A DNA stretch of 64,000 nucleotides from an uncultured Candidatus Saccharibacteria bacterium (lineage in GTDB: Bacteria > Patescibacteriota > UBA1384 > CAYGGE01). Under the pieces are notes generated by a model. The model saw only the letters and a list, made by a program, of their open reading frames with translations, did not search any database and had not been told where the DNA came from. Each line of letters starts with the position of its first letter. Position 1 is the stretch's first letter. This document shows, in pieces, positions 2,189-62,450 of this stretch. Both the position numbers and the translations under genes were made by a program. Where the stretch lies: contig CAYGGE010000003.1 in the NCBI GenBank assembly GCA_964349485.1, positions 5,899 through 69,898 on the forward strand, in the 5' to 3' direction.

Positions 2189-3310
2189 ATGGGGGATACA
2201 ACGGCTCCACTGGTTAAAGTATTTATTGCCCTGTGCATCGTCTCACTTGGAACGAACGTTATTTTGGGTTACCAGTGGCAAAGTGAACGTCAGCAGCTTC
2301 GCACCATGATTGCGGGAACCAAAAATGAACTCCAGCTTCGAAATGTTGAAAATAGTCAACTGAGCGAAGAGAACCAAGATTTCCAGACAGATATCGCCCG
2401 TAAGGAGCAAGAACTGGCGAAAAAGATAGCAGAGCTTGCTACCAAACAAAGTGCACTCAATGATTTGTCTAAACAACTGGCTGACAAGAAGTCCGAACTC
2501 GACACCAAGATTAGAGATTTAGCCGACGCAAAGAAGCAAGTCGACTCTCAAAAATCTCAGCTCGATGCCAATGCATCCGAACTCTCGAAGTTGCGTGACC
2601 GGCCACCCTTATTTTCTTTTCAGGTCAAGTCGACAAGTATAGTTGACGTAGAAGCCAAGAAGGCATCGGTGCAGCAAATCGTGACCGATGCCTATGAACT
2701 ATTTGATCAAATATATCCACGCTACTTGCTGAATAGCGTGACTATTACATTTGTTGATGCGTTTTCTAATCCTAACGCCGCCGGCGAAACAGTAATCAGT
2801 AATAGTAAAGATGGGTTGTCGATTGAAATACGGATTAAAGACTTCAATAAAAACAGTTTTAATGACATTAACACTATCCTCCACGAAGTGGCTCACGCCC
2901 TACGCGGAGTGGCAACGGTTGAGCCGACGGCTTGGGAAGAAGGATCGGCGGTAGCGATTACCGATGTGGTCATGCGAAAACTGGGCGACGCAGACAGGAT
3001 CCCTAAATTTAGTTCCTACTATATCCAGCTTACCGACACGCAATACGAAGCTAAACAAGCCAACCTCTCGATTCCTCGTGATGCTAACGCTTTTTATAGC
3101 AGTACCAAAGTTGTCGACTTCTACCAGGTTCTCGGTAAAGCCTGGTACAAACTCTATGAACAAGATATCGACTTCTTCAAAAAATTTAATGAAAAGCTCT
3201 ACGACCGAAAAGCTAGAGGCGAAGTGATTAACGAAGCCATGGTCCTCGATATCGTCCGCCAAGTCCTCCCCGAAGCGTCACTGACCGGCGCCGCTTGGAA
3301 TTTGAAGTAG
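2189..3310 (+). CDS. membrane-anchored coiled-coil protein with a C-terminal HExxH (zincin-like) domain
   Basis: N-terminal TM helix, ~120-aa heptad-repeat region (KQSALNDLSKQLADKKSELD...), then LHEVAHAL with downstream EEG; RBS aagtaagg. Confidence 0.55.
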   Translation: MGDTTAPLVKVFIALCIVSLGTNVILGYQWQSERQQLRTMIAGTKNELQLRNVENSQLSEENQDFQTDIARKEQELAKKIAELATKQSALNDLSKQLADKKSELDTKIRDLADAKKQVDSQKSQLDANASELSKLRDRPPLFSFQVKSTSIVDVEAKKASVQQIVTDAYELFDQIYPRYLLNSVTITFVDAFSNPNAAGETVISNSKDGLSIEIRIKDFNKNSFNDINTILHEVAHALRGVATVEPTAWEEGSAVAITDVVMRKLGDADRIPKFSSYYIQLTDTQYEAKQANLSIPRDANAFYSSTKVVDFYQVLGKAWYKLYEQDIDFFKKFNEKLYDRKARGEVINEAMVLDIVRQVLPEASLTGAAWNLK

Positions 3311-3387
3311 TTCTCAAAAAGAGCAGAAGGAGCCAGTCCGAGTGGAATGGCTCCTCCATAGCGCTACCCGATGCCGGACGCTAACGT

Positions 3388-4680
3388 CTATCTGAAGATG
3401 TCGGGAAAATCGAAAGGCTGTTCTAGCTCCCGATCTAACCAGATCCCATCCCAGTTGATTCTTCTACCTCCTTTCTTGCCTCGCGATACTGCGTTGCCAC
3501 GCTGTATCGCTCTAGGGAATCGTGGTGGAGTGGTGATTGTAGTAGCTAGGGACTCCTGCCGGAAGCATTGCTCTGGCAACCCGTATTCTTGCGCCATGTA
3601 AGCAACTAAACTCTTTTCCGGATTAACAGTGTGGAAGTCCATTGCTATCGCAAGTAGTTCATGGGCTGACGCGCGTGGATATTCCTGACGATAAAGGTCT
3701 AGCCAATATCGTTTGAGGATCCAGTCGATAGACCATAGACTGCCCCATGGCTGATCCTTGTACTTCACTAGCTTATCAAGTACGTCGGCCCAACGGGTCC
3801 AGATGATCGACATCCAGCCCGGCACCTCGGCTGTCTGCGTTGTCCTTCGAATGAAACGCTCGGCGCTATCACAGAAGTACCTTTGCATATCAAGTGCTGT
3901 ATAGGCTCGTCGCGATTTACAAAGCACCTTTCTTTTCAGACTGGTGTCTGCATTGATGGTCTGCATGGCGATAATTGGCTGATCAGGGTAGAGGAAGGAC
4001 AGGTTCATACCAGCCTCAATCATGCTGAGGACAATGCTCGTCACACCAAGCTTTAGCAGATTAGACCAGTGGGTAAAGTTAGCGTCGCCGATCGTGAGGT
4101 GTAGACGCCGGTACTTTCTAGCCATGTCAGAGAGCAAGAGATGCTCATCACGACTATTCAGAATGGATCGATCCCCTTCTGTCGCATGGTATGCCTCTAC
4201 TTCATCAAGTACCGTTGCCCGTTGAGACTGATGGAACTGGCCCTTCATGTCGACATGTCCACTCCCACAGAAGATCGTCCTTGAGACGAGGAAGGGCACG
4301 AGTGTCGGTGCTAGTTCTTTTGCCCACTGAACCGATCGTTTCATTAAGTAGTTCTCATGACACCCAAATGACGTTCCTGCTGGGTCAATGTTGTCACGAA
4401 ATACCGAGATAATCCTTCCTTGTTTCAGATTGCGTGCCCTTAACCGGTTGAGGTAGATATCAAAACCGAAGTGATACCTAGTTGCCTCAAATGGATCAAG
4501 ACACTCAGGGGTAGCGTATTCTGGATGACCCATGTCCCTATAAAAACGTCCGCCGTTAGGTAGAAACTCACTGTCGAAGTCGCTCAGCCCCATGAGGTAC
4601 GTCACCGCATTTGTTGCATCTTCCTCACCTATCATGGCGCAACCATACTCCATATCTAGACCGATGATACGTGTCAGCAT
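3388..4680 (-). CDS. Pup-ligase family protein (PafA/Dop homolog)
   Basis: N-terminus RIIGLDMEYG (cf. PafA RIxGxETEYG), HPEYATPEC, SFGCHENYL, LVPFLVSRT, NSRDEHL, KYRRLHLTIGDAN, LKLGVTSIVLSMIE all match conserved PafA/Dop blocks; GAGGA RBS before ATG at 4680. Confidence 0.8.
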   Translation of the reverse strand: MLTRIIGLDMEYGCAMIGEEDATNAVTYLMGLSDFDSEFLPNGGRFYRDMGHPEYATPECLDPFEATRYHFGFDIYLNRLRARNLKQGRIISVFRDNIDPAGTSFGCHENYLMKRSVQWAKELAPTLVPFLVSRTIFCGSGHVDMKGQFHQSQRATVLDEVEAYHATEGDRSILNSRDEHLLLSDMARKYRRLHLTIGDANFTHWSNLLKLGVTSIVLSMIEAGMNLSFLYPDQPIIAMQTINADTSLKRKVLCKSRRAYTALDMQRYFCDSAERFIRRTTQTAEVPGWMSIIWTRWADVLDKLVKYKDQPWGSLWSIDWILKRYWLDLYRQEYPRASAHELLAIAMDFHTVNPEKSLVAYMAQEYGLPEQCFRQESLATTITTPPRFPRAIQRGNAVSRGKKGGRRINWDGIWLDRELEQPFDFPDIFR

Positions 4681-4777
4681 TGCATCCTCAAAAAAAAAGA
4701 ACAGTCTCTGGTGAGAGACCAGAGTTGGCAGTAGTGTACCTGAAACTAGTATCACAATCAAGCACTTTTACCGATCG

Positions 4778-6097
4778 GTGTACGCGATTTCGTCGACTGA
4801 CAGGCTATGTTATAATAAGGCTGTCATAAGGAGGGACGTGGGTCTCTTTGATCTGTTTAGACGCCGGTCAATTGAATCTCGGTATGCACTGTCGCTCGAT
4901 ATTGGGACAGAGTTTGTTAAGGCTCTGGTTTTTAAAGTTGAGGACGATGGTAAGGGCTATGTTTTAGGCTACGGTCGTCAACGGCAGAAGCTATCCGACA
5001 TGCAGGGTGGGACCGTGACCGATATCCATGGTGTAATTCGTAATTGCGAAAGCGCAATTGAGCGGGCGGGGGAAATGGCCGGGGTCATCCCCCAGCAAGC
5101 GATCATTGGGATTGCTGGCGAACTGGTCAAAGGCACGACGACCGATATTCGCTATATTCGGCCTAACCCTAAAGCGAAAATTGACATGGTTGAATTGAAA
5201 GATATCGTTTCTCGAGTTCAGCGACGGGCGTTTGACCGTGCTCGGACGCTGTTGGCCTGGGAGAGTGGTCACAGTGAGCTTGACGTAAAACTGGTGAATG
5301 CGGCGATCGTCGATGTCCGGATCGATGGCCACAAAGTAACCAATCCACTCGGTTTCCAAGGGCGTGAGGTTCAAGTCGGAGTTTACAACTGCTTCGCGCC
5401 GATTGTTCATTTGGGTGCTTTGCAAACTATCGCTGACGAACTCGAACTTGACCTCTTATCGGTTGCGGCAGAACCTTACGCCGTAGCCCGATGTATTGGA
5501 CCCGAAGAGTCGTCCGAATTCTCGGCCATTTTTGTTGATATCGGCGGTGGAACCAGCGATATCGCAGTGGTTCGTTCTGGTGGCCTTGAAGGGACTAAGA
5601 TGTTTGCGATCGGCGGGCGGGCTTTCACCAAGAGAATTGCCCAAGTCATGAACATCACATTCTCAGAAGCTGAAGACTTAAAGCTTCGTTATGCTCAAGG
5701 CAATCTAGAAAAAGAGTTAGCCGATTCGGTTCACAATGCGCTCAAATCGGATTCAGCTGTCTGGCTGGCTGGTCTACAGCTTACGCTTGAAGAGTTCTCT
5801 AACTCTGAGCTGTTACCCAATCGCATACTCTTGTGTGGTGGTGGCTCAGGATTACCTGATATATACGAAACGTTGAACAACGCGAAGTGGGATAGCTCGC
5901 TCTCGTTCTCTCGTAAACCCTCAATTCACTTTGTGAAGCCGAAAGACCTCACCATGATTGTCGATAAAACGGGCGAGCTCAAAGAGCCACGTGATGTGAC
6001 ACCCATGGCTTTAGCCAATGTGGCGCTTGAACTAGTTGGTCAAGAAAAGCTAATGGATGGTGTCTTGAGCCGAGTGGTCAGTAGCCTTAAAGCCTAA
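4778..6097 (+). CDS. FtsA-like actin-family ATPase (possible GTG start at 4838 with AAGGAGG RBS)
   Basis: LDIGTEFVKALVF phosphate-1 motif, DIGGGTSDIAVV phosphate-2 motif, EPYAVA; FtsA/PilM superfamily. Confidence 0.65.
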   Translation: MYAISSTDRLCYNKAVIRRDVGLFDLFRRRSIESRYALSLDIGTEFVKALVFKVEDDGKGYVLGYGRQRQKLSDMQGGTVTDIHGVIRNCESAIERAGEMAGVIPQQAIIGIAGELVKGTTTDIRYIRPNPKAKIDMVELKDIVSRVQRRAFDRARTLLAWESGHSELDVKLVNAAIVDVRIDGHKVTNPLGFQGREVQVGVYNCFAPIVHLGALQTIADELELDLLSVAAEPYAVARCIGPEESSEFSAIFVDIGGGTSDIAVVRSGGLEGTKMFAIGGRAFTKRIAQVMNITFSEAEDLKLRYAQGNLEKELADSVHNALKSDSAVWLAGLQLTLEEFSNSELLPNRILLCGGGSGLPDIYETLNNAKWDSSLSFSRKPSIHFVKPKDLTMIVDKTGELKEPRDVTPMALANVALELVGQEKLMDGVLSRVVSSLKA

Positions 6098-6121
6098 AAC
6101 CGAGTACAATAGAGAGAAGCT

Positions 6122-7816
6122 ATGGATGAAATTCTTTACCTTGAACCTGATGAAGAGATAACCACGGTTATCGATAAACTAAAAAAAGCGAACACCAATT
6201 CGGTCGGTTTAGTGATCCCTCGAAGTGCCACCTTAGTACACAGTATTGTTAACCTTAAATTGCTGAAAAAAGAGGCTCAAAGTCTTGGCAAGGAGATCGC
6301 TTTAGTCATGACCGACCGGATTGGCAAGAATATTGCTTCCCAAGTCGGTATCCCAGTTTTCGAAGATGTCCACGCTAAGCGGCCAGTCAATGCTCACGCC
6401 TTGCCGGACATGCCTAAAGGCGACGAAGTTATAGAAGTAGACATGTCTAGTGGTCATACGAAAGAGCCAGCCGTTGAGAGCTCGACTGACACTGAACCGA
6501 TTGTTAAACAATATAGTACACAAACGTCTGAAGAGTCAGATAAAGCTGATAGTGTTCGAAAACAGCCGATTACTGCGGAGCATGATGATCAATCTGGAGA
6601 AGCACAACCGAAAAACTCCAACCATCATGAGACTCAACATAGACCAAAGCATAGAACGGGCACAAAATTTAAATTGATTGCGGTCGTTGTTGTACTAGCT
6701 GTATTGGTTGCTGGTTCATTTCTAGGACTACCACAATCGACGGTCTCGATCATTGTCGAGGCTGAACCGTTCGAAAAGACTGTGCCAATTGTCATTGCTA
6801 GCGAAAAACGAGCTTCAGACGACGATTCAATTTCGGCTACTGGCCAGCTGCTAGTGGTAGAAAATGATGATGCGCGGCGCGTTACTGCAACCGGTAAAAA
6901 AGATGTTGGTGGTAAATCCACAGGTAGCGTTAGCATCTCCAACGCTTGGGACAGTAACTCGATCAAGCTTGCCGCCGGTACCGATTTTACGTCGACTGAT
7001 GGAAAAGTCTACGATCTTGCCGAGGCAGTTACCGTGCCTGGCGCGACTGCAACCCTAAGCCAAGGACAGCTCGTCGCGACACCGGGGAAAGTAACTGGGA
7101 CGCTAATTGCTTTTGAACCGGGCGATAGTTATAATATCAAACCGACAAAGTTTACGATTCAAAATATCCCGTCAGAGCGTAAAGAAAAGATCTTTGGTGA
7201 GAGTAGTAAGGATTTTTCCGGCGGATTTACGAAACAGATAAGCATCATGACTCAAACTGATATCGACTCTGCCAAAGAGAGCATGGTCGGAGATCTGAAA
7301 GACAAGGCGAAACAAGAACTGACTAAGCAAGGTAAGGACATGAAGTTGCTCAGCGAAGCCGTAGCCACCGAAGTAGTAAGCGTTGAGACTAATCCAAAGG
7401 CGGTAGGGAGTGAGACTGATTACTTTGACTTGAAGGTTAAAGTAAAGAATCAAGTTATGGTCTTTGATGAGAAGGGTATGAATAGTGCAGTTGATAACGC
7501 CGTACGCAAAAATGTACCTGACAACAAAGAGTTGATCCTCGGCGAGGATGACGAGTTCGTGATAGAAGTTGATAAAACTGATTATGACAATGGTCAGTTG
7601 ATACTGAACGCTAAAGTAAAAACTAAGATTGGGACCCGTGTAGACCCCAAGGAAGCGAGACAAGGCTTAGCCGGTAAGAACAAAACGACAATAATGCAAA
7701 CCCTCGCCGAGTTACCTAATGTCAAAAACGTAGAAGTTCAGAAGTTTCCTACTTGGTGGTGGCAAGATACTTCTTTTGCACCCTGGAATACTCGAGTTAA
7801 AGTACTCTATGAGTGA
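6122..7816 (+). CDS. hypothetical bitopic membrane protein (564 aa): ~190-aa cytoplasmic N-domain, one TM, ~350-aa external domain
   Basis: hydrophobic FKLIAVVVVLAVLVAGSFLGL; no recognisable catalytic motif. Confidence 0.5.
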   Translation: MDEILYLEPDEEITTVIDKLKKANTNSVGLVIPRSATLVHSIVNLKLLKKEAQSLGKEIALVMTDRIGKNIASQVGIPVFEDVHAKRPVNAHALPDMPKGDEVIEVDMSSGHTKEPAVESSTDTEPIVKQYSTQTSEESDKADSVRKQPITAEHDDQSGEAQPKNSNHHETQHRPKHRTGTKFKLIAVVVVLAVLVAGSFLGLPQSTVSIIVEAEPFEKTVPIVIASEKRASDDDSISATGQLLVVENDDARRVTATGKKDVGGKSTGSVSISNAWDSNSIKLAAGTDFTSTDGKVYDLAEAVTVPGATATLSQGQLVATPGKVTGTLIAFEPGDSYNIKPTKFTIQNIPSERKEKIFGESSKDFSGGFTKQISIMTQTDIDSAKESMVGDLKDKAKQELTKQGKDMKLLSEAVATEVVSVETNPKAVGSETDYFDLKVKVKNQVMVFDEKGMNSAVDNAVRKNVPDNKELILGEDDEFVIEVDKTDYDNGQLILNAKVKTKIGTRVDPKEARQGLAGKNKTTIMQTLAELPNVKNVEVQKFPTWWWQDTSFAPWNTRVKVLYE

Positions 7817-8240
7817 CCAATTGCAACAAACTAGTGCAGGACCCGTTCTCTTAGGTCTTGATTTGGGCACTAAGAGAAGTGGTGTAGCGATCGCTAAACA
7901 CGGGCTAGCAACCGAATATGACACTCTGACTGAACCAAACATGTTGGTCCAGTCGATAGTCGATATTTGTAAAAAAGAATTAGTGACCAAGATTATTATT
8001 GGACTTCCACTTAACAATGATCATACGGAATCCGATCAGTCAGGATGGGTCAGAAAACAGGTTGAATCAATTGTGGCGGCCACCCGATTACCGGTAGTCT
8101 TTGAAGATGAATATTTGACTAGTACGGAGGCCAGACAGCAGTTGTTAGCTCTTGGTCTGTCAGCTGATCAAATTAAAACCAGACTAGACTCAAAAAGTGC
8201 CCAATTGTTACTTGAACAGTATTTGACTCAGGAACTATGA
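7809..8240 (+). CDS. ruvX: YqgF/RuvX Holliday-junction-resolvase-like pre-16S rRNA nuclease
   Basis: LLGLDLGTKRSGVAIA RNase-H-fold signature; ATGA overlap with the upstream stop. Confidence 0.8.
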   Translation: MSDQLQQTSAGPVLLGLDLGTKRSGVAIAKHGLATEYDTLTEPNMLVQSIVDICKKELVTKIIIGLPLNNDHTESDQSGWVRKQVESIVAATRLPVVFEDEYLTSTEARQQLLALGLSADQIKTRLDSKSAQLLLEQYLTQEL

Positions 8241-9172
8241 ACTATTTTCGACTATTCATCCGAAGTCTCATCATCTTAGTCATCGCTTTCTGCTTGGGTT
8301 TGGTTTTCGGCTATGTCCGTGCCATCCGTCAGCCATTGCCGATCACAGAGCCCCTCACCATTACCATCGAAGAGGGTGAAGGACCAAGACTGATTGCCCA
8401 GAAACTGATCAAACAGTCAATCCTAGACAATGAACGACCGTTATTTGTCTATATTTTGGCAATGGGTAAACGAAATATGTTTTATCCAGGCGTTTATGAA
8501 CTCCCGACGCAAGCGTCGATTGTCGATATTGTCCGTATTCTGACGTCGGGCAAGAAGGACCACGTCGTTATCCGTATTAAAGAAGGTTCGAGGATCACTG
8601 ATATTGCAATAGAAATCCAGAAGAAGCTAGGAATCTCAGCGTCGGACATTATTGCTGTAGCTCCTGTAGAGAATTTCGAAGGCTATCTATTCCCCGATAC
8701 TTACTATTTCGCTAAGGAAGCGACTGCCCAATCTGTTGTCAAGACAATGCGGGATAATTTTAACACCAAAACCAGTACACTTGAGCTAACCAAAGAAGAT
8801 GTGATCTTGGCAAGTATCGTCGAACGCGAAGCGGCTAACGATTCAGAACGAGCAACTATTGCTGGTCTCTATCAGAACAGGTTAGCAATCGGCATGGCTC
8901 TACAAGCAGATCCAACTGTTCAGTATGCTAAAGGGAGTTGGGAGGCTATAAGTGTGGCTGACTACAGCAACGTAATCTCACCCTATAACAGCTATCTTCA
9001 CCAAGGACTACCACCGACGCCGATTGCCAGCGCCAGTCTTGCCTCACTTAAGGCCGTCAAATCACCAGAAAAGAGTGATTACTACTACTTCTTCCATACG
9101 AAAGATGGGCAAACGATCTTCTCTAAGACCGGAGCCGAACATACTGCCAATAAGGCGAAATTCTTGAGATAA
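8237..9172 (+). CDS. mltG: YceG/MltG endolytic murein transglycosylase
   Basis: N-terminal TM helix, YceG-like core, conserved ruvX-mltG synteny. Confidence 0.75.
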   Translation: MNYFRLFIRSLIILVIAFCLGLVFGYVRAIRQPLPITEPLTITIEEGEGPRLIAQKLIKQSILDNERPLFVYILAMGKRNMFYPGVYELPTQASIVDIVRILTSGKKDHVVIRIKEGSRITDIAIEIQKKLGISASDIIAVAPVENFEGYLFPDTYYFAKEATAQSVVKTMRDNFNTKTSTLELTKEDVILASIVEREAANDSERATIAGLYQNRLAIGMALQADPTVQYAKGSWEAISVADYSNVISPYNSYLHQGLPPTPIASASLASLKAVKSPEKSDYYYFFHTKDGQTIFSKTGAEHTANKAKFLR

Positions 9173-14069: not shown

Positions 14070-15635
14070 ATGTATTGGGCCGATGAGATTGCGCAAAAAG
14101 TTATTGCCCGTTCACCTGGCAAAAGCCTCTATCGAGTACATGACTATAAAACTCCTTCTGGGCGCATTCACGTGGGTGCACTTTGTGGCGTGATTATACA
14201 CGGAGTGGTTGCTCGAGCTCTTGAAGCTAAGGGTCACGATGTTGTCTACACCTACGGTTTCGATGACTATGATCCCATGGATGGTTTTCCTATCTATCTT
14301 CCAGAGAATTATCGTCAATATATGGGCATGCCACTTTCTGAGATTCCTTCTCCCCAGCCAGGCTACTCGAGTATTGCTGAACTATATGCGAAAGAATTTA
14401 TAGACGTATTTAACGCTCTCGGCTTTAAACCAACCATTTTGTTCATGAGTGAGTTTTATAAAACCGGCAAGTTTAACGAAGCGATCCGGATGGTTCTCGA
14501 CAATGCGGCAGTAATTCGGCAAATTTATAAAGAGGTAAGTGGTTCAGAGAAGCCCGATGACTGGTTTGGTCTGTCGGTACTTTGCCCCAACTGCGGTAAG
14601 ATTGGAACCACGCGGGTCTATGCGTGGGATGGCAAAGAAGTTAGTTTTAGATGTGAACCGGCAATGGTGAAGTGGGCCGAAGGTTGTGGTCATGTTGGGA
14701 AAGTTGATCCATTTGATGGTCGCTCAAAATTGCCATGGAAGATCGAGTGGGGAGCGAAATGGTGGATGTTTAATGAAGATTTTGAAACAGCTGGCAAAGA
14801 TCACATGACAAAAGGCGGTTCCTTCGATGTAGCTGCTTCGATTTGTCGACAAGTTTTTAAAGCCGAGCCCCCGGTTGGCCGCGAAGTGCCTTATGAGTGG
14901 CTTTTAGTTGGCGGTAAGAAAATGAGCTCTTCTAAAGGCACTGGTGCCAGCGCAAAAGAAGTCGCCGAGCTGTTGCCTTCGCATTTATTAAATTTCTATA
15001 TCGCTAAAGGTAAGATTAATCGTCACAAAGAATTCTCTCCAGACGACAACACCATGCCCTTACTTTACGATGAATATGACAAAGCGATTGTCGCCTACCA
15101 TGCAGACCCCGAAAGTGATTTAGCGAAGGTGATTAGTTACATTAAGTCTGACGATCAGGTGTTCCCCCAGTATACCATGCGTTTTACGAAAGTTGCCTTC
15201 TTATCCCAAATGCCGAGCGTCAATGTCTGGGACGTGGCTCGTAGCGAAAAGGGGACTGAGTTATTGCCAGAGGATGAGGCCGAGCTCACCGAACGGCTGG
15301 CCTATGCCGAGGTATGGTTAGCTACGCTAGCCCCCGATGCGTATAAGTTTGTGCTTCAAGCTACACTACCGTCGGTTACACTCACTGCGCTCCAGAAAAA
15401 TTTTCTCGAAAAACTATATACCATAATGCTTGAAAACGCTCAATTGACTGGTGCCATCCTTCACGAGAAAATTCATGCCCTCAAGACTGAAGCGAACCTC
15501 TCACCCGCAGAAGCATTTGGTGCCATCTATCATATCTTCCTGGCCAAAGACTCCGGTCCTCAGGCAGGTTGGTTCTTGGCGGCTCTTGATCGAGAATTTG
15601 TCCTCAATCGTCTGAAAGATGCAGCACTAAAGTAA
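14070..15635 (+). CDS. lysK: lysyl-tRNA synthetase, class I (archaeal-type LysK)
   Basis: HVGA (HIGH-type) and the class-I LysRS-specific KMSSSKGTG motif. Confidence 0.8.
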   Translation: MYWADEIAQKVIARSPGKSLYRVHDYKTPSGRIHVGALCGVIIHGVVARALEAKGHDVVYTYGFDDYDPMDGFPIYLPENYRQYMGMPLSEIPSPQPGYSSIAELYAKEFIDVFNALGFKPTILFMSEFYKTGKFNEAIRMVLDNAAVIRQIYKEVSGSEKPDDWFGLSVLCPNCGKIGTTRVYAWDGKEVSFRCEPAMVKWAEGCGHVGKVDPFDGRSKLPWKIEWGAKWWMFNEDFETAGKDHMTKGGSFDVAASICRQVFKAEPPVGREVPYEWLLVGGKKMSSSKGTGASAKEVAELLPSHLLNFYIAKGKINRHKEFSPDDNTMPLLYDEYDKAIVAYHADPESDLAKVISYIKSDDQVFPQYTMRFTKVAFLSQMPSVNVWDVARSEKGTELLPEDEAELTERLAYAEVWLATLAPDAYKFVLQATLPSVTLTALQKNFLEKLYTIMLENAQLTGAILHEKIHALKTEANLSPAEAFGAIYHIFLAKDSGPQAGWFLAALDREFVLNRLKDAALK

Positions 15636-49703: not shown

Positions 49704-50027
49704 ATGTCTAAACGTGACGAACAAGGCCAGAAAATCCGCATCCGTCTGCGTGCGTACGACTATCGAATCATCGATAAGAGTGCCCGTAAGATCATTGAAA
49801 CGGCCGAGCGAACCGGCGCCGTAGTTCACGGTCCGATTCCTCTACCAACGGAAAAGAAGAAGATTACGGTACTGAAAAGTACGTTCGTCCACAAAGACGC
49901 TCGTGATCAGTATGAGATGCGAACTCATAAACGGCTCATCGATGTCCTTGACCCAAATTCAAAGACCATCGACGCCCTGATGAGTCTAGATCTGCCGGCT
50001 GGTGTCGATATCGAAATAAAGACCTAA
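49704..50027 (+). CDS. rpsJ: 30S ribosomal protein S10
   Basis: [41 protein letters not shown]. Confidence 0.95.
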
Positions 50028-57087: not shown

Positions 57088-57765
57088 TTATTCACCCGTC
57101 GGCTTGATTCGCTTGGTCTTGGGGCGTTCTTCTTGGACTTTTGGCAGCGTGATGGTGAGTACACCGTTTCTCATGTCGGCTGTTGCTTCATCACTGATTA
57201 CTGGAAGAGGAAGGCCGAATGTTCGGCTAAAGGATTGTTGTCGATATTCTTGACGCAGATAGTCTTGTGAATTATTCTTTCCCTCACTTATGGCTGTACC
57301 GCTAATCGTCACGAACTCATCAGCCACATCGATATCGATCTGTTCTCGCGTAAAACCTGGGGTGTGAGCTTCGAGATAGAGCTGCTTTTCGTCTTGTCTG
57401 ACGTTGATCATCGGGAACGTTGTTCCAACCGTGAGCGGAAAATGGATATCCTGATCAAAGGGCTGATCAATGTGTTCCCTGGCATCGGTCAGCGATCCCC
57501 ACGGGCTCACGTCCTTACCGATCGCCACTCCTTTTTCGACCCCCTTATCTTCCACTTTACTGGTTACTGGCATGGTCCGGATCACATCCTCTAATGGCTC
57601 ACGAAAAAACTCAGCCAGTTGAATAGCGAGTGGCAACGAGGGTAACCATCGACCCTGTTCAAGGGAGATCAGAGACTGACGTGAAATGTTAAGCTGTTTA
57701 GCCAGCTCCTCTTGGGTCAGATGATGATGTTTACGAAGCTCTCGAACTCGAACAATAATTTGCAT
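57088..57765 (-). CDS. fusion protein: N-terminal XRE-family HTH DNA-binding domain + C-terminal Hsp20/alpha-crystallin domain
   Basis: N-terminus LRKHHHLTQEELAKQLNISRQSLISLEQGR (HTH_XRE); C-terminus EAHTPGFTREQIDIDV...GVLTITLPK (alpha-crystallin domain hallmark). Confidence 0.7.
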   Translation of the reverse strand: MQIIVRVRELRKHHHLTQEELAKQLNISRQSLISLEQGRWLPSLPLAIQLAEFFREPLEDVIRTMPVTSKVEDKGVEKGVAIGKDVSPWGSLTDAREHIDQPFDQDIHFPLTVGTTFPMINVRQDEKQLYLEAHTPGFTREQIDIDVADEFVTISGTAISEGKNNSQDYLRQEYRQQSFSRTFGLPLPVISDEATADMRNGVLTITLPKVQEERPKTKRIKPTGE

Positions 57766-61700: not shown

Positions 61701-62450
61701 TTATTGCGCGCTACTAATACAGTACGGTCTAAGATTGATATAGAGCTCTTTTGCTTTGCGGGTTAGACGACTATGGGGAGCGATATTGATTGGCAACTTA
61801 GGATCGATACTGACCGCTTCGGCATATAGAAACACAGCTTTTTTCGCCAAAAATTGGTTCTGTGGTCGTGATCGTCGTTTAACCGAAGACAGAGTTCTCT
61901 CACCCTGACTGATGAACATTTCATAACGACGCTCGATTGTCACCCAGTCCCAGCACTGTCTAACAAATAGTGAAAGCTGGTATGTGCTATCATCGGCGGT
62001 CGTTACTAGCTGAAAGATATAATTATCGATGCCTTGACGCCTGGAGTACCGTTGCAATTCTTGCTTATTCTGCCTGGCCGATACCCAAACACTCGATTTT
62101 AACATCCCATAATTAGCCGTCTTCAAAAAATTACGAAGATTGTCGCGTAACTTTCTTTTTGATTCCGGGATATCAAATATCACCAAATGCCACTGTCGAT
62201 TCCAAGTCTCTGGACTGGTTTTTTTTATCGCGTCTAGCGTTTGATTGAGTTTCTCTATCCCGTGCAGACTAATACTGTACGTCAACTCACTACGACGCTC
62301 TTTTTTTATGACTAAACCCTTGTTAACTAGGCGACCGAGTGCTGAGTAGATAACCTGGAGGTCGGGATTTTCGAAGTAAGTCGGTATGATCTCTGTCGAA
62401 GATTCACCTAGATCATCGAGCAGGATGAGTAACTCATCGATGATAGTCAT
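61701..62450 (-). CDS. PaaX-family transcriptional regulator
   Basis: N-terminal winged HTH; WNRQWHLVIFDIPESKRKLRDNLRNFLKTANYGMLKSSVWVSA matches the PaaX core. Confidence 0.6.
   Translation of the reverse strand: MTIIDELLILLDDLGESSTEIIPTYFENPDLQVIYSALGRLVNKGLVIKKERRSELTYSISLHGIEKLNQTLDAIKKTSPETWNRQWHLVIFDIPESKRKLRDNLRNFLKTANYGMLKSSVWVSARQNKQELQRYSRRQGIDNYIFQLVTTADDSTYQLSLFVRQCWDWVTIERRYEMFISQGERTLSSVKRRSRPQNQFLAKKAVFLYAEAVSIDPKLPINIAPHSRLTRKAKELYINLRPYCISSAQ

Follow-up and report, generated by a model that had tools for sequence, protein, structure and literature searches.

A solitary PafA-like protein of a candidate third Pup-ligase subfamily in a candidate phyla radiation bacterium

The window, a 64,000-nt stretch of contig CAYGGE010000003.1, carries on its minus strand, at 3388-4680, a gene for a 430-aa protein of the Pup-ligase family, the family of the Pup ligase PafA and the depupylase Dop. 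The protein is predicted to be an intact and catalytically competent enzyme which, by curated tests, is neither PafA nor Dop and would belong to a previously undescribed third subfamily. The gene stands alone: neither a modifier gene nor a partner enzyme or proteasome gene accompanies it here or in the other genomic contexts in which its subfamily was found. The explanation that we favour, tentatively and as quite possible rather than established, is that the protein works as a PafA-like carboxylate-amine (isopeptide) ligase, dependent on ATP, with a donor that cannot be recognised as Pup.

Membership in the family is firm. An initial annotation, made from the sequence by itself, had proposed a PafA/Dop homolog, citing the conserved blocks RIIGLDMEYG, HPEYATPEC, SFGCHENYL, LVPFLVSRT, NSRDEHL, KYRRLHLTIGDAN and LKLGVTSIVLSMIE; all of these were found in the translation, and profile, PDB matches and predicted fold agreed with the proposal. 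The Pfam Pup_ligase profile (PF03136) matched residues 36-412 with E = 2e-90 and 304.3 bits, the cut-off being 25. Among PDB sequences the best match was Dop (E = 1e-55), and PafA was matched with E = 1e-42. The AlphaFold2 (AF2) model had a predicted local distance difference test score (pLDDT) of 91 and a predicted template modelling score (pTM) of 0.93, and in Foldseek it gave template modelling (TM) scores of 0.88 to Dop and 0.83 to the PafA-Pup complex over ~440 columns. Against YbdK, gamma-glutamyl-cysteine ligase (GCL) and glutamine synthetase (GS) the model reached TM 0.48 or less at 8-12% identity, and no Pfam or NCBIfam match to the GCL, YbdK or glutamine synthetase families was obtained. 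Placement in GCL or another non-Pup clade, or loss of the catalytic acidic residues, had been named as grounds for giving up the assignment; the protein was placed with PafA and Dop, and the residues were intact.

Residues were mapped from PDB alignments, in which the chain numbering of Corynebacterium glutamicum PafA (CgluPafA) is the native one, and from the residue lists of PMC8599861 and PMC12053664. The complete ATP/Mg-binding set, which the initial annotation had marked for checking, is kept. The Mg ligands E8, E10, Y92, E99, H155 and H241 of Acidothermus cellulolyticus Dop (AcelDop) correspond to D9, E11, Y47, E54, H108 and H194 of our protein, the catalytic Asp (Dop D94, Mycobacterium tuberculosis (Mtb) PafA D57) to D49, and the conserved Arg (Dop R90) to R45. 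The adenine-contacting R418 and ribose-contacting W440 of CgluPafA are R390 and W410, and the GhExE nucleotide motif is present as G7-L-D9-M-E11-Y12. Across the protein itself (P0001) and its relatives P0002, P0003 and P0004 the catalytic set, which includes E11, Y12, R45, Y47, D49, E54, H108, R154, R177, R192, H194, D199, N201, R390 and W410, is invariant despite 37-50% identity; at position 9, P0001 and P0002 have Asp where P0003 and P0004 have Glu.

The pocket for a glutamate-ended tail is kept as well. In PafA, Mtb S119 (Cglu S126) shapes the groove for the C-terminal tail of Pup (PMC5952411), and Cglu R201 is the sole residue that salt-bridges Pup's terminal Glu (PMC8599861). The equivalents are S104 and R171, both invariant, and N97 and I98 stand for the pocket neighbours N119 and V120. 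Of 94 columns at least 90% conserved in 46 canonical-type PafA/Dop sequences, 72 (77%) are kept at an overall identity of ~32%. The retention of these columns and of the catalytic and pocket residues argues for purifying selection on catalysis and on the binding of a glutamate-ended tail.

While the family part of the earlier proposal stood, neither of the two named enzymes could be assigned. The score against the PafA equivalog TIGR03686 was 227.7 bits (cut-off 551.3) and that against the Dop equivalog TIGR03688 was 238.9 bits (cut-off 492.3), and P0002-P0004 likewise scored 214-242 bits, under both cut-offs. The best matches from a scan of genome contigs were canonical PafA/Dop proteins, 33-35% identical.

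The features that tell PafA from Dop were mixed. The Dop-loop, ~40-65 residues before beta2, which had been suggested as a means of separating the ligase from the deamidase type, is absent, as in PafA: nothing is inserted between beta1/helix1 and beta2, and the alignment to Dop starts only at residue 38, equivalent to Dop residue 83. A missing Dop-loop favours ligase behaviour (PMC7947786). At the positions of Table 1 in PMC7947786, F39 and A56 are PafA-type. Dop residues H95, A96, S101 and S452 are replaced by M, G, A and N. The D-M-G-H sequence resembles the D-V-G-S-H of PafA, without the Ser; this missing insertion, R48, P58 and N409 are not PafA-type, and N409 fits neither PafA (Asp) nor Dop (Ser). 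The C-terminus is shortened: the helix that ends PafA is missing, and so is Dop's longer tail. In a search with a subfamily profile the best outgroup matches were of PafA length, and those with names were called Pup--protein ligase, so that the architecture appears PafA-like in a separate subfamily. Together, the absent Dop-loop, F39 and A56, the nearest outgroup of the profile, and a tree in which the subfamily was never sister to Dop alone make us lean to the ligase type. A further trait was discarded. The alpha-loop contacts targets in PafA and is the main ligase/hydrolase discriminator (PMC7947786), and its non-helical form in the AF2 model had been taken as Dop-like; when a canonical PafA (P0253) was modelled in the same way, without ligands, as a control, the crystallographic alpha-loop helix was also missing, so that AF2 secondary structure of this loop does not separate ligase from depupylase.

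In a neighbour-joining distance tree with midpoint rooting all 100 bootstraps recovered the subfamily as monophyletic, and its long branch lay outside the canonical clusters. Mean tree distances were 1.51 between the subfamily and PafA, 1.56 between the subfamily and Dop, and 1.15 between PafA and Dop. A sister relation to Dop alone was seen in none of the 100 bootstraps, and the exact attachment point was unstable. Because of its method and rooting the tree is indicative rather than decisive. The distance tree also placed two non-canonical Pup_ligase homologs with HEAT-repeat fusions (PF13646), P0016 and P0116, together with P0105 and P0111 and away from canonical PafA and Dop.

The subfamily is rare. 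A word-indexed search of 5.8 billion proteins returned four members at 700-745 bits, with the next match at 296. The impression of a clade of just four was corrected by an exhaustive HMMER search of 1.84 billion representatives, which added P0297, P0298, P0299, P0300 and P0301 (482-310 bits) and brought the subfamily to ~8 clusters at 50% identity. In that search the subfamily scored 310-724 bits and canonical proteins from ~287 bits down, among 5,523 matches for the whole family. Members share the lack of a Dop-loop and of a Ser insertion before HPEY, the motif changes [RH]DN[IM]D for KNNTD, RLHLT for RLHVI and [HF]PRA for TTRA, an insertion of 3 residues after RDE and another, VPxW, and a short C-terminus that ends around FxFP.

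Neither Pup, a 20S proteasome nor Mpa/ARC had been noted in the 64 kb, and this holds for the window and for ~20 kb of additional flank. The gene inventory covered all called genes in the window, ~9.5 kb to its left and ~10 kb to its right (~84 kb in all); it listed a single Pup_ligase gene and none for a 20S subunit or Mpa/ARC. PrcA and PrcB from three canonical loci had no matches in the region, and Mpa matched ~31 residues of the RuvB P-loop. No 25-160-aa open reading frame (ORF) of the window ends in GG[QE]; three have the ending G[QE], at lengths of 26-29 aa. Two hidden Markov models (HMMs), one from 44 distinct Pup and one from 7 UBact sequences harvested from 80 canonical PafA/Dop loci, were then run on complete six-frame, stop-to-stop translations. 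As a positive control, 67 of the 80 canonical loci yielded a modifier within 10 kb with a score of at least 79 bits, and the absence of Pup and UBact therefore carries weight within the ~84 kb read. The two HMMs scored 7.6 bits or less across the window and its flanks and in five further contexts of the subfamily, and nothing significant was detected in 0.8 Mb of related CPR (candidate phyla radiation) DNA. Literature searches yielded nothing useful on pupylation in CPR/Patescibacteria.

In each of six independent subfamily contexts (window/L001, L005, L006, L171, L172 and L173) the gene was solitary, without Pup, UBact, paralog, Mpa or proteasome. The sole ORF family common to any two contexts was the housekeeping GTPase BipA (L005 and L173, 71% identical). 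The earlier suggestion of a free-standing enzyme is thereby strengthened, as it is by the absence of the gene from 80 syntenic loci described below. Small ORFs beside P0297 and P0299 (89, 130, 152 and 42 aa) were considered as modifiers and rejected; they resemble neither Pup nor UBact, do not end in G[QE] and lack counterparts in the other contexts. The reference loci (L007-L086) differed in their modifiers: Nitrospirota carry an actinobacterial-type Pup ending in ...QKGG[QE], and verrucomicrobial and Chthoniobacterales loci carry UBact-type modifiers ending in ...RQRTG[QE]. The Pup HMM and the UBact HMM do not detect each other's targets.

A mechanism for the favoured PafA-like ligase can be proposed by homology with PafA (PMC3511204, PMC8599861). 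ATP and Mg2+ would bind on the beta-sheet cradle, and a gamma-carboxylate held by the R171 and S104 pocket would be phosphorylated to an acyl-phosphate. This carboxylate would most plausibly belong to the side chain of a glutamate at the C-terminal end of a protein or peptide tail. An amine, most plausibly that of lysine, would be positioned near D49 and attack the acyl-phosphate to give an isopeptide bond. The ligase direction is the most likely one, and the donor is most likely neither a recognisable Pup nor UBact, nor encoded beside the enzyme. Because no proteasome or Mpa is nearby, the product would not serve to mark proteins for proteasomal degradation. A more specific proposal, which we regard as doubtful but worth stating, is that the subfamily activates the terminal Glu of an unrelated protein or peptide, or of a metabolite, and couples it to lysines or other amines in proteasome-less bacteria. 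Such Pup-independent conjugation, if true, would be a new bacterial post-translational or peptide-ligation system on the PafA scaffold.

Several observations weigh against the favoured explanation. In P0001 and P0002 the first Mg-binding Glu is replaced by Asp, and in some distant members the core motifs are degenerate: RDE reads RLV in P0298, and in P0301 HPEY reads KLEY and CHENY reads CHSSY. Part of the subfamily may have lost or changed catalysis. P58 is Dop-type, the Ser insertion after the catalytic Asp is absent as in Dop, and the fold match is slightly better to Dop than to PafA. The alpha-loop is unlike that of PafA (HxWEGxSSAxxRS), unlike that of Dop, and varies within the subfamily. 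A horizontal origin of the gene, taken up below, rests mainly on phyletic pattern and synteny, because the composition is only mildly atypical. Finally, ~84 kb of the genome was read, and a Pup-like gene may lie elsewhere.

This last point bears on a rather unlikely alternative, in which conventional pupylation is dispersed: the genome would encode Pup or UBact in recognisable form at some other place, perhaps along with an Mpa-like unfoldase, and our protein would be the ligase of this modifier. The conserved Pup-tail pocket residues with R171 agree with this, as does the extent of genome that could be read, and proteasome-less pupylation is known in corynebacteria and in Plesiocystis and Rhodopirellula (PMC3511204, PMC2588565). 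However, Pup adjoins the PafA-family gene in all lineages studied (PMC2588565), and did so here within 10 kb in 67 of 80 canonical loci, while a modifier was found in none of the six subfamily contexts, no second paralog occurs in the ~84 kb, and the protein scores below both equivalog cut-offs. In another alternative, the PafA scaffold would have taken on a new role as a small-molecule ligase that couples an acid, glutamate or another, with a small amine, and no protein tagging would be involved. That possibility, unlikely in our judgement, fits the lack of a modifier or conserved partner gene in any context and the lack of conservation of the alpha-loop, which recognises protein targets in PafA. 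Moreover, the family derives from gamma-glutamyl-cysteine-synthetase-like enzymes (PMC2588565), and free lysine can itself be pupylated by PafA (PMC5952411). The distance of the fold from GCL and GS, at TM 0.48 or less, speaks against it.

The ligase direction would be wrong if the protein, like Dop, acted as an amidase or deconjugase and hydrolysed an isopeptide or gamma-glutamyl amide instead of forming one. Dop structures are indeed its top PDB sequence and fold matches, and the absence of a PafA-type Ser insertion after the catalytic Asp and the Dop-type P58 point the same way; but the conserved Dop-loop is missing, four Dop residues (H95, A96, S101 and S452) are replaced, the nearest relatives found by the profile are PafA ligases, and no bootstrap made the subfamily sister to Dop alone, which together render this improbable. 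A decaying transferred gene, or an assembly or binning artefact, without function here would account for the great rarity and patchy distribution of the gene, for its mildly atypical composition and for the degenerate motifs of some distant members. We consider it very improbable: the ORF is intact and has a Shine-Dalgarno sequence and a terminator, the identical protein with CPR flanks is present on 6 contigs from at least 4 assemblies, and the catalytic residues are invariant at 37-50% identity, with 77% of family-wide conserved positions kept.

The ORF list runs the minus-strand frame from a TTG at 4761 down to 3388. The start was taken as the ATG at 4680, giving the 430-aa product, with a TAG stop codon at 3388-3390. 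The initial annotation had called the N-terminal extension (4681-4761, minus strand) unlikely and trimmed it, and three lines of evidence agree: public gene calls contain the exact 430-aa product (P0001), the homologs P0002 and P0004 begin at the residue equivalent to ATG 4680, and a Shine-Dalgarno sequence, GAGGA (4685-4689, minus strand), lies 4 nt before that ATG and thus inside the extension. The 457-aa long form, absent from public records, was rejected. Directly upstream of the Shine-Dalgarno sequence a terminator-like scan found a hairpin of 7-8 bp (CTCTGGT...ACCAGAG) followed by a T-run (4690-4724, minus strand). The 5' leader had no Rfam match, and folding of the whole leader was not better than that of shuffles (z = -0.34). 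Because the same strand has no upstream gene needing termination, the hairpin may be a leader or attenuator, or may serve the divergent promoter region as a bidirectional element. Downstream, RNA folding gave a strong hairpin (3357-3326) with a U-rich tail (3317-3357, minus strand), the likely intrinsic terminator of the gene, at -34.5 kcal/mol and z = -3.43 against shuffles. It occupies the 77-bp gap between two convergent genes and was overlooked by the consensus terminator scan, probably on account of its interrupted stem. Being divergent from the ftsA-like operon, the ligase gene appears to be a monocistronic unit that has a ribosome-binding site and a terminator to itself. A chimeric assembly is ruled out by the 6 contigs, on which both the protein and its CPR flanks are identical. 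The records of the protein at NCBI and ENA include contigs k141_356693 of ERZ27247820 and k141_615601 of ERZ27247830.

The host, judged by RpoB, is a Patescibacteria/CPR bacterium related to Berkelbacteria, in line with the earlier impression of a Patescibacteria-like organism. The window RpoB has a 100% identical counterpart on a 164-kb public contig, the next group is at 81-85%, and identity is ~71% to proteins named Candidatus Berkelbacteria or Patescibacteria group. The Pfam inventory of the ~84 kb around the ligase gene lists housekeeping functions only: mreBCD, PBP2, ftsEX, LytR and a D-Ala-D-Ala carboxypeptidase for envelope and division; rpoBC, S12/S7/EF-G/EF-Tu/S10, IF2, several aminoacyl-tRNA synthetases and more ribosomal proteins for transcription and translation; and secA, ruvB, dnaK/dnaJ, obg, sugar-phosphate metabolism genes and a few unknowns. 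An FtsA-like gene adjoins the ligase gene in divergent orientation, as had been annotated. The convergent neighbour at 2189-3310 (plus strand), earlier called an envelope gene, encodes a 373-aa protein that has a hydrophobic segment at its N-terminus, a long region of coiled-coil type and, in its C-terminal part, an HEVAH (HExxH, zincin-like) motif; apart from coiled-coil noise it had no Pfam, NCBIfam or PDB family match.

The block of the ftsA-like gene, a gene for a 564-aa protein, ruvX and yceG (4838-9172, plus strand) is conserved in 80 metagenomic CPR-type loci (L089-L168), whose FtsA-like proteins are 50-63% identical. The 564-aa protein (6122-7816) shares just 25-33% identity across loci and has a weak GlxA beta-barrel match and no other family assignment. 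None of the 80 loci carries a Pup_ligase homolog, ~30 of them having the full 8 kb upstream, and the left flank of the ligase gene is not syntenic with them; the gene therefore lies at a synteny breakpoint. No database protein is more than ~50% identical to the ligase-like protein, though RpoB relatives at 81-85% exist. Relative to the window mean, GC content of the gene is +1.4 standard deviations (SD) and that of third codon positions (GC3) +1.75 SD, and its codons are used in a somewhat atypical way for a gene of this length. The phyletic pattern, the synteny breakpoint, the missing close homologs and the composition point to a lineage-specific acquisition that was not recent, and the gene was probably acquired horizontally.

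Some other features of the region were seen in passing. At 57088-57765 (minus strand) an N-terminal Cro/C1-type helix-turn-helix is fused to a C-terminal Hsp20/alpha-crystallin domain, an unusual architecture. The S10 gene at 49704-50027 (plus strand) lies after tuf, but the usual L3-L4-L23 operon does not follow and a convergent obg comes next; an S13-S11-S4-rpoA-L17-L13-S9 cluster lies beyond the right window end (L169 1686-5166). The lysyl-tRNA synthetase at 14070-15635 (plus strand) is of the class I type (PF01921), which has a restricted bacterial distribution. A PaaX-like protein with a Cas2-like middle domain is encoded at 61701-62450 (minus strand), adjoining RNase III and NusB; no CRISPR array was seen, a dedicated repeat search not having been made.

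Among known systems, PafA (TIGR03686; PDB 4B0T, 4BJR) of Actinobacteria and Nitrospirota is like our protein in having a fold that includes a small domain at the C-terminus, a similar length and no Dop-loop. The complete ATP/Mg/catalytic set is also shared, including the equivalent of Mtb D57, as are the pocket serine, the Arg that contacts the Glu of Pup, F39 and A56. The protein differs from PafA in being ~31-33% identical, in scoring 228 bits against a cut-off of 551, in its own subfamily indels, in lacking the Ser insertion before HPEY, the alpha-loop sequence and the terminal helix, and in having Asn for Asp before the conserved Trp. Unlike PafA loci, the ~84 kb lack a pup gene next to the ligase-like gene, a dop paralog, mpa and prcAB. 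With Dop (TIGR03688; PDB 4B0R, 7OXY) it shares the spacing from the catalytic Asp to HPEY and a Pro at the position of Dop P103, and Dop is its best PDB sequence and fold match (E = 1e-55, TM 0.88); unlike Dop it has no Dop-loop, no H95, A96, S101 or S452, and a C-terminal tail ~30 residues shorter.

Lehmann and colleagues are said to have reported UBact in 2017 in some candidate phyla, including CPR lineages. The UBact loci of Verrucomicrobiota and other Gram-negative phyla resemble ours in having a PafA/Dop-family enzyme outside Actinobacteria, but the verrucomicrobial loci have UBact within 10 kb and several have a second paralog, neither of which is found here. Corynebacterial pupylation without a 20S proteasome (PMC3511204) sets a precedent for Pup-ligase chemistry with no proteasome to supply; in corynebacteria pup, dop, pafA and the gene for the ARC ATPase have stayed together, whereas here the ligase-like gene is alone. 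The phylogenetic surprise implied by the initial annotation is reduced, because single-copy, proteasome-less Pup-ligase homologs outside Actinobacteria are documented in Planctomycetes and Deltaproteobacteria (Rhodopirellula, Plesiocystis) (PMC2588565, PMC7947786). Those homologs are like ours in having one family member per locus, no proteasome linkage and ~30% identity to PafA and Dop. As described, they are set apart by an adjacent Pup, a 4-TM insertion (PMC2588565) or a partial Dop-loop alignment (PMC7947786), none of which the subfamily has. Even in the proteasome-less Plesiocystis and Rhodopirellula loci Pup is adjacent to the PafA-family gene, as it invariably is (PMC2588565), and the subfamily breaks this rule of adjacency.

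The solitary subfamily would offer the pupylation field a natural minimal ligase for testing the fold without Pup, and would add a rare, probably transferred capacity for protein modification or ligation to the very small set of genes in a CPR bacterium. If a Pup-like gene were present elsewhere in the genome, pupylation would instead be extended to CPR in a dispersed and proteasome-free form, a smaller but useful finding. To our knowledge, PafA/Dop enzymes have so far been understood only within Pup (or UBact) tagging. The retention of the catalytic machinery and the Glu-tail pocket, with no modifier, partner or proteasome in any context, suggests that the PafA scaffold has a second use. In sum, non-actinobacterial, single-copy and proteasome-less homologs of the family were already known, and what is new is an orphan PafA-like candidate third subfamily, seen here in a CPR bacterium.

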